Assembly (NCBI GenBank): GCA_902490565.1
Contig: CABUEK010000004.1
Span: 18,156-82,155, forward strand
Length of the DNA stretch: 64,000 bases
Source: an uncultured Collinsella sp.
GTDB taxonomy: Bacteria > Actinomycetota > Coriobacteriia > Coriobacteriales > Coriobacteriaceae
Direction: 5' to 3'
Positions 30,058-56,660 of this stretch are shown piece by piece. The notes under the pieces were generated by a model. It saw only the letters and a list, made by a program, of their open reading frames with translations, made no database searches and was not told the DNA's origin. Made by a program: the position numbers and the translations under genes. Positions within the stretch are counted from its first letter, which is position 1. Every line of letters begins with the position of its first letter.

Positions 30058-30093
30058 GGGGGGGGCGGGCACCGTGGCTGGTGTCCGCCCCCC
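30058..30093. terminator. GC-rich hairpin between convergent genes
   Basis: GGGGGGCGGGCACC / GGTGTCCGCCCCCC (13/14). Includes a G8 run. Confidence 0.5.
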
Positions 30094-52695: not shown

Positions 52696-53002
52696 GTCCA
52701 CCTCGTTCCAGCGCGGTCCGCGCAACGCGCCCGTTGTCTTAACTCTACACCGTGGCGGGCGAGGTGTCTGTTGGATGCGGAATCCGATAGGACGGATGAC
52801 GCGGGAGCAAATGCAAATCACAGGCTCAATTCCATCACGCGAAAATATGATGCACCAGCTCCTTCAAATGTGACGAAATTGTGAAGCACAGGAGCATGAA
52901 TTTCAAAAAATACGCTGGTCGCCAATGTTGCGCAACAGAATTCAAAAATCAGCTCCTACATTTTGAAGCGTATGGATACATCCGTGTCAAAGGGAGAAAG
53001 CC

Positions 53003-56000
53003 ATGACAAACTACAGTCCACAACACTTTGAGCCTCGGGCCAAGGCCGTCAACGTCAAGGGCGTTGCCAACCGCGCCGTCGCAACCGTTTTGACGGCGGG
53101 CCTCATCGCTCAGCCGCTTATGTCGCCGCTGGCGGCAATCGCCGCACCGTCAACCGGTAACGGCGATTCTGTGCAGGGGGGGGGGTAGTTCTGTAGAGAA
53201 TACCGTTGCCGCCGGTAACCAAGCGGTCGTAAAGACGGCTGCCCAGCTGGCCGAGGAGTCGGCAAAGCAGCTCAAGGACGCTCAGGCCGCCTACGATGCC
53301 GCCCAGAAGAAGGCCGACGCGGCGGGCCAGTCTCAAAAGCAGGCGCAGCAGCAAAAGAATCAGGCCTCGCAGGCCGTGACCGATAACGCCGCCGAGCAGA
53401 ACGAGGCCGAGGTAGCCGCGCTTCAGGAGAAGATCGACGAGCTTAAGGCGGCCGTCGACAAGGCCGAGCAGCAGCAGAAGAAGCTGGGCGACCTGAACGA
53501 TCAGCTCGATCAGGCCAACAAGAGTGTCGAGGATAAGACCCAGGCGCTCAAGGACGCCAAGGCAAAGCAGGATGAGGCCAAGAAGGCCCTCGATGATGCC
53601 CAGGCCAAGCTCGAGGCCATGGGTATGGACGAGTACGAGGCCGCCAAGAAGGCCGTCGAGGACGCACAGGCAAAGCTCGATGACGCCAATAAGGCCGTTG
53701 CTGCTGCACAGGCCAATCTGGACCAGGCCAAGGCCGCCGAGGCCAGTGCACAGCAGGAAAAGAAGGACACTGAGGCCGCTCTGACTTCCGCCCAGGCCAA
53801 GAAGCAGGAGACTGCCGCTGCTCTCGCAGCCGCAACCACCGCGCGCGATAACGCCCAGCAGAAGTTCAACCAGGCGCAAGCCGCGCTCGATGCTGCCGTC
53901 TCGGGTACGGGTGTTGACCTGAGTGCGCTTGAGGCCACCAAGAACGCTGCTGCTGGTGAGCTCAAGACCGCGCAGGCGGAGCTCAATGCCGCGACGGATG
54001 CCGACGCCACCGCACAGGCGAACCTGCAGGCTGCGCAGACTACCGTCACCGCCGCGCAGGAGAAGGCCAACGCCGCCAACGCCGCCGTGGCATCTGCCCA
54101 GTCTGCATATGATGCGGTAAGCAAGGAATACAACGCCGCCGTCAGCAAGCGCGACGCCGCCAAGGCCGCATGCGAGCAGGCCCAGCAGACCGAAGCCGAC
54201 AAGAAGGCGGAGTACGACCGACTCGTCGAGGTCCGTCAGCAGAAGCGCAGCGAGTGGGAGGCGGCCTGCGCCGCTTCGAACGCCGCGGAAAAGGCTTATG
54301 ACGCTGCTAATGCCCAGGTTGAGGCTCTTGAACAGCAGATTGCAGACCTAAAGTCCAACATGACCGTTGACCAGGAAGTCATCAATAAGGGCATGCTCGG
54401 CTTTATGGCCTACATCAGCAACAGCAGCGATTTCACCGCCACACAGAAAAAGAACGCCCAGGATGCCGTATCGATGCTGACCGGTGCTGAGGACAAGGCC
54501 GACTGGTATGACCAGTACGTCGATCAGGATATGTCTCGCGACACCAATCCGCTCTCCTTGGAGCAGATGCGCAACGCCCTGACATATCTCGACACCCAGA
54601 ACAACCTCCGCAAGGCGAACGGTCAGTCGGCGCTCAGCGTCAGCCTCCGTATGACTGCGGCAGCCGCCCTTAATACATCATATTCATCGAACATCTGGGG
54701 ACACTCGAACTGCTACTTCGACAACGGTGAAAACCTTGCTGGCGGAGGCGGCGCATATACCGGCGGCGAGACCGAGGATACCCTCGGCTGGCCCTATACC
54801 GGCCTCTATACTCAGGAAAAGAAGATTTTCGACAAGTATGTAGAGCAGTATGGTGACAAACTCGGCAAATATCGATATGAGTCCTATTACATCTATCAGA
54901 ACTACAACAGCATCTACCACGAGTGCGGGCACTATCTCAACATTATCGATGCCTCTACGAGAGCCATCGGCATCGCGACCGGTAGCGGCAAGAATACCGA
55001 TTCCGAGGTAACCATCTTCGATTACAGCGATGATGACACGCAGGCTGATTTCACTGTCTCCGAGTTCAAGAAGCTCCTCAACGACTACATCGATTCCGCC
55101 TACAATGCGGGCGGCACGCAGGCGCAGAAGGCGCAGCTCAAGGAGCTCCAGGGCAAGCTTGCCGAGGCGCAGAAGAACTTTGGAACTACAAGGGAAGCTT
55201 ACTTCGCAGCTGTAAACGGGCAGGATGCCGCCCAGGACGCTTTCACCGCAGCCGATGTGAACATGAACACCGCCAAGGGCGAGTACGAGAAGGCTAAGTC
55301 CGGCACCGCCGCCGCGAAGACGGCATACGACGCCGCCGAAGCCAAACTCAAGGGTATCGACGTCAAGACGCCCAAGACCAAGCTCGACGCCGCCAAGAGC
55401 GAGGCCGCTACTGCCCAGGCAGCTCTCGATAAGGTAAACGCCACGCTTGCTGACAGCAAGACGAAGGCAGCCGAGGCCGCCGCTCACAAGGCGAAGGCTC
55501 GCAGCGCCCGCGATGCCGCCAAGGCAAAGTCCGAACAGGCCAACGAGGCGTATGACAACGCTACCGCTTCGGTCAAGGACCTTGCCGCCAAGCGCGATGC
55601 CGCCCAGGCGGACCTTGCGAATAAGCAGGGCTCGCTTGACGAGGCAAAGAAGGCCGACGATGCCGCCCAGGCTGGTGTAGACAAGGCCCAGGCCGCAGAT
55701 GTCCAGGCCGCGACTGCTCTTTCGGACGCCAAGCAGGCAGTTGCCGCCAAGACGCAGGCCCTGTCCGACGCGCAGGCCAAGGCCAAGGCCGCCGAGGGCG
55801 AGCTTGCCACCGCACACAAGGCCTTCGAGCGCTTCGCCGGCGCTCAGAAGGCGGTCGACGACGCCAAGGCCGCCTATGACGCTGCCGTCGCCGGTGTCGC
55901 CGATGCCCAGAAGCAGCTCGAGGCCGCCAACGAAGCCGTCGTCGATGCGAACCTCGAGATCGTCAAGGCCAAGGCCGAGCTTGCCAGCGATGAGGCACTC

Positions 56001-56459
56001 AAGGCCGATCTTGAGGCTGTCGACCACAAGGCCTCTCTTGCCGCGGGCACGACGGGTAACGAGAAGCTGGTCAAGCTGAACGCTGCCTACGCTCGCTATA
56101 AGGCCGCCGTCGATGCCGCCGCTGGCCTCAAGGCTGCTCTGAGCGATGCCGATGCCAAGCTGTCCGATGCCAACGACGCCTGTGCCGCCGCGCTTGCCGA
56201 GCTCGGAGATGCCAAGGATGCCCTGGCTGCCGCTCAGGCCGAGTACGACAAGTATCATCCCAAGGCTGAGCCGCAGGCCAAGCCTCAGGTTGCGCAGGCT
56301 GCTGCAAAGGCCCCCGTTGCCAAGAAACAGGCTGCGCCTGCCGCGCTCGCCCAGACTGGCGACAATTCCGCGCTTGCGGGCGAGGTGTTCGTCATCGGCG
56401 GTGTGACGCTCGTGGCAGCGGGCGTGACGCTGGGCGATCGTCGTCGCAAGCAGATGTAG
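53003..56459 (+). pseudogene. cell-wall-anchored (LAQTG) coiled-coil surface protein with central CAP/SCP-like domain, frame-interrupted at a G10 tract (phase-OFF or homopolymer sequencing error)
   Basis: Signal-peptide ORF 53003-53188 stops at TAG right after G10. The downstream frame is open from 53187 to 56459 and ends LAQTG + TM + RRRKQM. G9 or G12 would fuse the two frames. Confidence 0.75.
53176..53185 (+). repeat. poly-G(10) homopolymer inside the surface-protein gene
   Basis: Counted directly: GTGCA-GGGGGGGGGG-TAG. Confidence 0.9.
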
Positions 56460-56572: not shown

Positions 56573-56660
56573 CGATATCAAAAAGTCCGGTCAGCAGCCG
56601 CAGAAGCTACCGACCGGGCAAGCCGTAGGCAATATGGTTGCTGTCGAGCAGCTGCTCGAC

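Follow-up and report, generated by a model that had tools for sequence, protein, structure and literature searches.

A poly-G tract as a probable slippage switch in the gene for a predicted cell-wall-anchored CAP-domain protein of Collinsella

Collinsella aerofaciens is among the commonest actinobacteria of the human gut. The DNA considered here, referred to as the window, is a stretch of 64,000 nucleotides (nt) from an uncultured Collinsella sp. (assembly GCA_902490565.1, contig CABUEK010000004.1, positions 18,156 to 82,155 of the forward strand), and its subject is a plus-strand gene whose beginning and body are parted by a run of ten G residues. A Shine–Dalgarno-like GGGAG at 52992-52996 (+ strand), 6 nt before the ATG at 53003 as read from the sequence (GTCAAAGGGAGAAAGCCATG), precedes an upstream open reading frame (ORF) of 61 codons plus a TAG (53003-53188, + strand; TAG 53186-53188). 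This ORF encodes a signal-peptide-like N-terminus, and its 61-amino-acid (aa) product, MTNYSPQHFEPRAKAVNVKGVANRAVATVLTAGLIAQPLMSPLAAIAAPSTGNGDSVQGGG, is what the proposed OFF state would yield. The frame-setting tract, read as exactly ten G (53176-53185, + strand), takes up codons 58-61, directly behind the stretch in which signal-peptide cleavage is predicted, whilst the body of the gene lies in the +1 frame (53187-56459, + strand), begins SSVENTVAAGNQ at 53187 and continues for 1090 codons plus a stop codon (TAG 56457-56459), with no second lesion in the 3.3 kb of the window copy. Removal of one G fuses the two ORFs into a continuous protein of 1151 aa that reads ...VQGGGSSVENT... across the junction (DSVQGGGSSVENT); a G12 version would read VQGGGGSSVENT. 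An earlier note on this DNA had described such a layout, and direct reading confirmed its signal-peptide ORF ending in TAG right after the G10 as well as the continuous protein predicted for nine G. Its stop-free +1 frame also stood, with two corrections: LAQTG lies at 56346-56360, 56459 being the end of the stop codon, and the frame, which is indeed open at 53187, is already open from about 53094.

Read from the 61-aa translation, the N-terminus has a signal-peptide-like layout comprising a basic n-region, a hydrophobic core AVATVLTAGLIAQPLMSPLAAIAA and then AIAAP; the hydrophobic stretch covers aa 21-48, with Kyte–Doolittle windows of at most 1.65 and a hydropathy peak at aa 21-40. Beyond the tract comes an N-terminal helical stalk rich in Ala, Lys and Gln, coiled-coil-like in composition (53199-54359, + strand), followed by a CAP (SCP/PR-1) domain, Pfam PF00188 (54588-55025, + strand; residues 529-674 of the fused protein), a C-terminal stalk that is likewise helical by composition and model (55056-56255, + strand) and a cell-wall sorting signal (56346-56456, + strand) made up of LAQTG, the hydrophobic segment DNSALAGEVFVIGGVTLVAAGVTLGD and the tail RRRKQM. 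The PF00188 match spans the full profile (1-117 of 117) at E 6.7e-10 and 40.3 bits against a gathering score of 21.1; database relatives share the Pfam CAP label, and the NCBI name is ‘CAP domain-containing protein’. An AlphaFold2 (AF2) single-sequence model rendered the stalks as helices (aa 4-411 and 624-1023 of the 1090-aa product), and its CAP domain, with a predicted local distance difference test score (pLDDT) of 20-30, was unusable. The two stalks, alike in length, might pair into a hairpin that bears the CAP domain at its tip. A sequence search of the PDB with the CAP region found no CAP entry, and NCBIfam returned for the protein only SMC/Rad50-type coiled-coil matches, all of them below threshold.

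Relatives of the gene were found in Collinsella, mostly in isolates and metagenome-assembled genomes (MAGs) of the C. aerofaciens group; the earlier note had rightly guessed a Coriobacteriia-type gut actinobacterium as the source. Class E sortases of Actinobacteria accept LAxTG motifs. On these features the product is predicted to be a secreted, sortase-anchored fibrillar surface protein of the C. aerofaciens group. The M-protein-like fibrillar LPXTG proteins of Gram-positive cocci are built from a signal peptide, long α-helical stalks rich in Ala, Lys, Gln and Glu, and an LPXTG-type anchor. The Collinsella protein resembles them in its signal peptide, helical stalks, anchor and Pro/Ala/Lys-rich wall-spanning segment, but its CAP domain sits mid-protein between stalks of similar length, its motif is LAQTG, and the homology is one of coiled-coil composition only.

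The tract itself is exceptional within the window. A homopolymer census of the 64 kb found G10 to be the longest run, with 38 runs of G5, two of G6 and one other run of at least eight (G8, 30058-30065), and given this steep fall-off chance alone would not be expected to produce a G10 in DNA of this length. The tract is made of GGG codons, and GGG accounts for 5.8% of the Gly codons in 15 other ORFs of the window. We consider it likely that the tract is a replication-slippage phase switch, with the window copy in the OFF state. A tract of G9 (or G6) would be ON, the whole 1151-aa protein being made and exported. At G7 or G10 translation would end at the TAG directly after the run, and at G8 it would end at a stop three codons further on, giving a 63-aa peptide. 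The OFF states would therefore leave only a signal-peptide fragment of 60-63 aa and no exported protein, since the first start codon in frame with the body beyond the tract, GTG 53376, neither follows a Shine–Dalgarno-like sequence nor precedes a signal peptide. Length shifts would arise by slipped-strand mispairing at replication, far faster than point mutation, so that lineages could drift between ON and OFF and host pressures could select either state; the window copy, at G10 and otherwise intact, would be one slippage step from ON. We infer slippage as the mechanism, reversibility within a clone and a selective agent (e.g. antibody or phage).

Some 250 related assemblies were compared overall. 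The genome set, for which each GTDB species was represented by a single genome and loci were sought by their CAP domain, without use of the tract, consisted of the best 80 of 474 loci; 71 of the 80 reach both the tract and the 3′ end, and 61 are full-length (3.4 kb each). The metagenome set of 118 contigs came from a scan keyed on the left flank of the tract. Among the 71 genome-set loci the tract was G9 in 43, G10 in seven, G8 in four, G7 in two and G6 in three, with an in-frame 6-nt deletion allele in two, an insertion element in seven and three that the script did not read (one of these, L045, is G9 by eye). The metagenome contigs comprised 73 with G9, 13 with G8, nine with G10, seven with G7, six with G6, five with the in-frame 6-nt deletion allele and two with an insertion-element junction, the remaining three being L120 (G9 plus a 1-nt deletion just after the tract), L191 (a divergent allele) and L188 (a contig end). 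Cultured isolates showed G9 in six cases, G6 in two (L086 is a cultured isolate with G6), an insertion in three, G10 in one (L098, 28.6x coverage) and G7 in one (L101, 26.6x). Run lengths were thus observed from 6 to 10. The earlier note had offered two explanations, a slipped-strand on/off tract caught OFF or a homopolymer length error, and had proposed comparing tract lengths across isolates; with G9 modal and G6, G7, G8 and G10 recurring in many independent lineages, that comparison supports phase variation.

Loci that match over the rest of the gene were found in different tract states. L053 (G9) and L055 (G10) differ at 0 of 3416 nt, L013-L020 (G9) and L021 (G10) have 0 differences outside the tract, and the pairs L040/L058 and L152/L165, whose tract states also differ, have 2 differences each. 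A tree of the 71 genomes built by the unweighted pair group method with arithmetic mean (UPGMA) requires no fewer than 24 changes of state, and most OFF loci have a G9 locus as their nearest neighbour; the window's own closest relatives are L033 (99.7%), with G9, and L034 (99.6%), with G8. Judged from these alignments, tract length is changing much faster than the rest of the gene.

The OFF alleles are also abundant. The exact 61-aa product of the window (G10) was found in 75 contigs and 134 index blocks, the G8 product (63 aa, ...QGGVVL) in 341 contigs, one of them of 2.45 Mb, and the G7 product (60 aa) in 326 contigs. Ten loci were fetched through the 61-aa product; nine were G10 with an intact downstream ORF of 1027-1038 aa, and one was G6AG3. 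With 32 to 397 nt differences from the window and several allelic backgrounds among them, the nine independent G10 loci indicate that G10 arose more than once.

Three further alleles of the tract were seen. One is a recurrent in-frame allele, CAGGGGGGTTCTG, in which GGGTAG is lost, a G6 run remains and the protein lacks Gly-Ser (L070, L087, L111, L119, L158, L201 and L214). The divergent allele of L191, CAGGGGG CAACATT GGGGGGGG TGTTTCGGAAGAAAAT, has two runs, G5 and G8; as assembled its frame is broken, and an additional G in the one run or the other would restore it. Rare interrupted tracts comprise the G6AG3 of L233 (4173-4182; 10 nt, out of frame) and that of a protein, P0278, ending in VQEGG, and these could be locked states.

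A plain pseudogene would be dead and decaying in the source strain, and the earlier note had taken an out-of-frame tract together with further disabling mutations as the mark of such a gene. The window copy is out of frame as assembled and annotation calls its pieces separately, both of which fit a pseudogene; yet it has no second lesion, most genomes carry an intact in-frame copy, and all 13 out-of-frame copies among the 61 full-length genome-set loci are free of any other frameshift or stop. The ratio of nonsynonymous to synonymous polymorphism (pN/pS), about 0.2 across the population, was 0.16-0.28 in every region (signal peptide, both stalks, CAP domain and anchor), and by this measure the CAP gene is evidently under purifying selection. 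A plain pseudogene is consequently very improbable indeed. The lesions that do occur are concentrated at the tract: 20 of 23 inactivating lesions, the seven insertions counted, fall within 9 bp of a 3.4-kb gene. No other small frameshift was found in the 61 × 3.4 kb of genome-set loci, and the three nonsense mutations of the full-length set (TAG at codons 241, 342 and 644) are all in G9 copies.

Selection to keep the run was examined over 110 loci, from which five error-prone metagenome contigs (L128, L135, L150, L198 and L221) had been excluded for this synonymous-site rate test. Synonymous positions inside the tract underwent 0 changes by parsimony, whereas elsewhere fourfold-degenerate sites changed 7.1 times on average and Gly third positions 10 times, 11-15% of sites being unchanged; the two other GGG codons of the CAP gene changed 4 and 9 times. 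For the two sites of the tract this conservation has P of about 0.01-0.02 by gene-wide rates and about 0.13 by the slower local rate. Maintenance of the run is supported but not decisively so, evolution being slower at the 5′ end of the gene.

Several observations weigh against a slippage switch. The evidence comes from assemblies rather than reads, so that the G10 of this assembly could itself be a length error; G tracts are a known difficulty for Illumina sequencing (PMC9187656); and among the metagenome contigs of low coverage some are visibly error-ridden, the five named above carrying many scattered 1-nt deletions (L128 and L150 at about 2x coverage), which makes tract lengths from such contigs untrustworthy. 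The tract-maintenance result is moderate at the local rate, 36% of fourfold-degenerate sites in the first 700 nt being unchanged. Lastly, irreversible lesions (nonsense TAGs, 1-nt deletions and insertion sequences (IS)) occur in the same gene, so that some of the pattern could reflect plain selection for loss.

The first of these points amounts to a rival explanation, namely that the true tract is G9 and the extra G stems from sequencing or assembly. G tracts are hard for Illumina and for other platforms (PMC9187656), contigs of the error-ridden kind exist, and one MAG contig, L024, starts with adapter at the tract. On the other side, G10 was found in seven of the 71 species representatives, in nine of the 118 metagenome contigs and in the 134 index blocks, and one isolate has it at 28.6x (L098); moreover, the genome-set loci contain no other 1-nt indel. 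The population polymorphism would stand even if the window tract were wrong. We regard a length error in the window as unlikely. Some contigs start or end exactly at the tract (L024, 1-45, which begins with Nextera adapter; L081, 1; L188, at its end), which suggests that the tract breaks assemblies, through read artefacts, mixed lengths or IS.

The last point can be stated as a second rival, in which the G run is a mutational hotspot acted on by selection for loss: the protein would be costly in some hosts and the run the easiest place to break it, with no evolved, reversible switch. Nonsense TAGs in the genome set agree with this, as do the IS insertions in seven of 71 genomes and the five TAGs and two 1-nt deletions of a further set drawn through truncated gene calls, some of them within a near-clonal lineage. 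That further set arose from the first protein search, the hits of which were without exception N-truncated gene calls, 650-825 aa in length; in addition to the tract, every one of the 22 loci obtained by way of these calls (L001-L022) has a lesion that is either a nonsense TAG or a 1-nt deletion. The sample is biased, since a break in the gene is what gives rise to a truncated call, and a recurrent pseudogene with no intact copy anywhere was rejected as an explanation once the CAP-anchored genome set showed intact in-frame copies. Within it, L003-L012 (gene at about 2145-5666) are contigs of separate samples that have the same 721-aa C-terminal product and differ by about 2 nt, and they carry five different nonsense TAGs (codons 286, 290, 345, 354 and 450) with tract lengths of 8, 9 and 10. 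These are evidently repeated independent losses in one lineage, in a sample drawn through broken gene calls.

Selection for loss alone fits less well with other features of the locus. The 13 of 13 tract-OFF full-length copies without a secondary lesion are as expected of young or reverting OFF states; multi-step lengths (G7 and the in-frame G6) point to repeated slippage; the run stays uninterrupted despite strong codon bias against GGG; and even the divergent L191, with a different sequence around the site, keeps a G8 run, which at nine G would be in frame. A hotspot under selection for loss therefore seems fairly unlikely to us, though less so than a length error, and a phase switch is preferred. 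To judge from the irreversible losses that also occur, expression seems sometimes to be a disadvantage, and it is under just such conditions that a switch is worthwhile.

A further possibility, which could add to DNA-level switching rather than replace it, is a leaky OFF state caused by recoding on G10, either by RNA polymerase slippage or by a +1 ribosomal shift at GGG-UAG of the prfB type. The sequence context is the argument for it, a G-rich, Shine–Dalgarno-like run that leads straight into a GGG codon and a UAG stop. Homopolymers are known sites of transcriptional slippage, but G/C runs are generally less efficient at it than A/T runs, which counts against recoding, and with the in-frame G9 genotype modal recoding is not needed for expression. 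Recoding at this tract is, in our estimation, quite improbable.

Switching of this type has long been known from the contingency loci of Neisseria, Haemophilus, Campylobacter and Helicobacter, an example being the poly-G in the signal-peptide region of gonococcal pilC. The Collinsella locus, like them, has its homopolymer in the 5′ part of the coding sequence of a surface-protein gene, ON and OFF forms that differ by a frameshift, and length polymorphism between close strains; it differs in that theirs are outer-membrane proteins or lipooligosaccharide enzymes of Gram-negative pathogens, whereas here the product is a predicted sortase substrate of a Gram-positive gut commensal. A closer parallel is found in Bifidobacterium breve UCC2003, where the pilin genes bbr_0113 and bbr_1889 are subject to an experimentally tested replication-slippage switch at a G tract (Penno et al. 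2022, PMC9187656); its lengths, determined by maximum-depth sequencing, changed in vivo (PMC9187656). In both gut actinobacteria the poly-G is intragenic and parts a Sec signal from an LPXTG-type body in two ORFs, the tract length decides whether translation continues (as predicted for Collinsella), and the second ORF is without a usable start or signal. The B. breve tract, however, lies in the first gene of a pilus operon with its own sortase, whereas the Collinsella gene stands alone and encodes a CAP domain with helical stalks; B. breve is annotated as G11, with G11 and G12 the main culture populations, whereas in-frame G9 is the commonest state in Collinsella; and the B. breve switch has been measured directly, the Collinsella switch being proposed from genome comparison. 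The earlier note had known of no description of such a switch in gut actinobacteria of the Coriobacteriia type. A search of one literature library found no report of homopolymer phase variation in Collinsella; among gut actinobacteria at large the same layout was already known in B. breve. The Collinsella locus would be an instance of a classical mechanism with a close precedent in B. breve, placed in another class of gut actinobacteria and in a different kind of protein.

In a quarter of the assemblies, then, a large surface protein is predicted to be OFF at a single 9-bp site. Strains identical by marker genes may thus differ in what they display to the host, which bears on studies of antibody coating, adhesion and phage. 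There is also a consequence for annotation: automatic pipelines split the OFF gene into a ‘hypothetical protein’ and an N-truncated ‘CAP domain-containing protein’.

The insertions in the tract are of one kind. An IS110-family element of about 1.54 kb, with ends ATTACAGTCTGAA...CTATAGGAACA, lies inside the G tract in seven of the 71 species-representative genomes (L025, L031, L042, L043, L044, L060 and L096, in the first 37-138 nt of each), including a C. aerofaciens ATCC 25986 isolate, strain RTP21484st2 and Collinsella sp. AF23-2. At the 3′ junction in these seven, foreign DNA ending ...TTCAGACTGTAAT gives way to the tract's 3′ edge, GGG(G)TAGTTCTG, the contig end lying 37-138 nt away because contigs break inside repeats. 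The other junction, ...CAGGGGGG joined to TGTTCCTATAG, was read in L113 (element at 524-2061), in L219 and in ORFs of 74 aa that begin with the signal peptide and continue into the element. A filled site is therefore G6, element, G3-4, as against G9-10 in an empty one. The seven insertions require at least six independent events on the gene tree, and L060, with the insertion, is identical over nt 200-3456 to L053 (G9) and L055 (G10). The 390-aa ORF of L113 matches DEDD_Tnp_IS110 (PF01548, 2.4e-30) and Transposase_20 (PF02371, 1.2e-19). The left end of the element is about 270 nt and folds with z = -4.2, and the right end is short, about 110 nt; an Rfam search of the element gave no relevant match.

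The element is very abundant, one protein cluster having 5117 members. Other copies were located in L103 (680), L104 (6617), L223, L224 (3003-4360, minus strand), L226, L227 (715-2273), L228, L229 (715-2251) and L230-L232. Wherever the flanks of such a copy could be read, it was embedded in a run of C, 3-4 to its left and 6-8 to its right, one right flank being CTCCCC; L230 and L231 occupy the same site with C8 and C7. The element thus appears to target G/C homopolymers of about 9-10 nt. To our knowledge, no IS110 member has a G/C homopolymer as its target. In IS492 of Pseudoalteromonas atlantica, reversible insertion drives phase variation of exopolysaccharide (EPS), and the Collinsella element is like IS492 and other IS110 elements in its DEDD and Transposase_20 domains and its long left and short right ends; it is unlike them in its apparent target, a ~9-10-nt G/C homopolymer that would itself be a slippage switch. 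In the IS110 subgroup with this layout the left end encodes a bridge RNA, insertion in the family is sequence-specific, and scarless excision has been reported (PMC11208160). Insertion may, given such excision, be a second and reversible way to silence the gene.

The copy in L229 (flanks 1-716 and 2252-2320, minus strand) interrupts a second gene of the same design, with a signal-peptide-like MRRTFVMLAAVLCAFVMV, a G run of 6 + 4 around the IS that would be in frame at G9, and a product exceeding 1000 aa in which Pfam DUF7601 is found; the recurrence of the design suggests that poly-G-switched surface proteins form a family. Tentatively, the tract could be a two-mode switch, at once a slippage site and the attachment site of a bridge-RNA-type IS110 element that homes to the poly-G tracts of surface genes (CAP and at least one DUF7601 gene) and silences them in a manner reversible by excision. 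We hold this to be possible, though less likely than not. The locus offers a natural test case for an IS110-type RNA-guided element that targets homopolymer switches, and this association is the lead most worth following. Two individual copies may be recorded. In L113 the right flank shows that the element landed at a run of the terminator-hairpin type, the kind also seen at 30058-30065 of the window. In L103 (681-2189, minus strand; an IMG/VR contig) the element is broken after about 385 nt by an opposite-strand ORF of 502 aa with a YMDD-type motif, which is reverse-transcriptase-like.

The surroundings of the CAP gene in the window are simple. Both neighbours are on the minus strand, a DUF389 gene upstream and an OPT transporter gene downstream, and between the latter, which is convergent, and the CAP gene lies a 13-pair hairpin (56587-56617, minus strand), a likely terminator. 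With housekeeping neighbours on the opposite strand and a hairpin at its 3′ side the CAP gene stands alone, so that the switch would affect the CAP gene only. A promoter scan upstream of the gene gave no plus-strand match. The G8 run at 30058-30065 was considered as a second switch and rejected, as it lies in noncoding DNA between convergent ORFs, where it supplies one arm of a terminator-like hairpin (GGGGGGGGCGGGCACC...GGTGTCCGCCCCCC).

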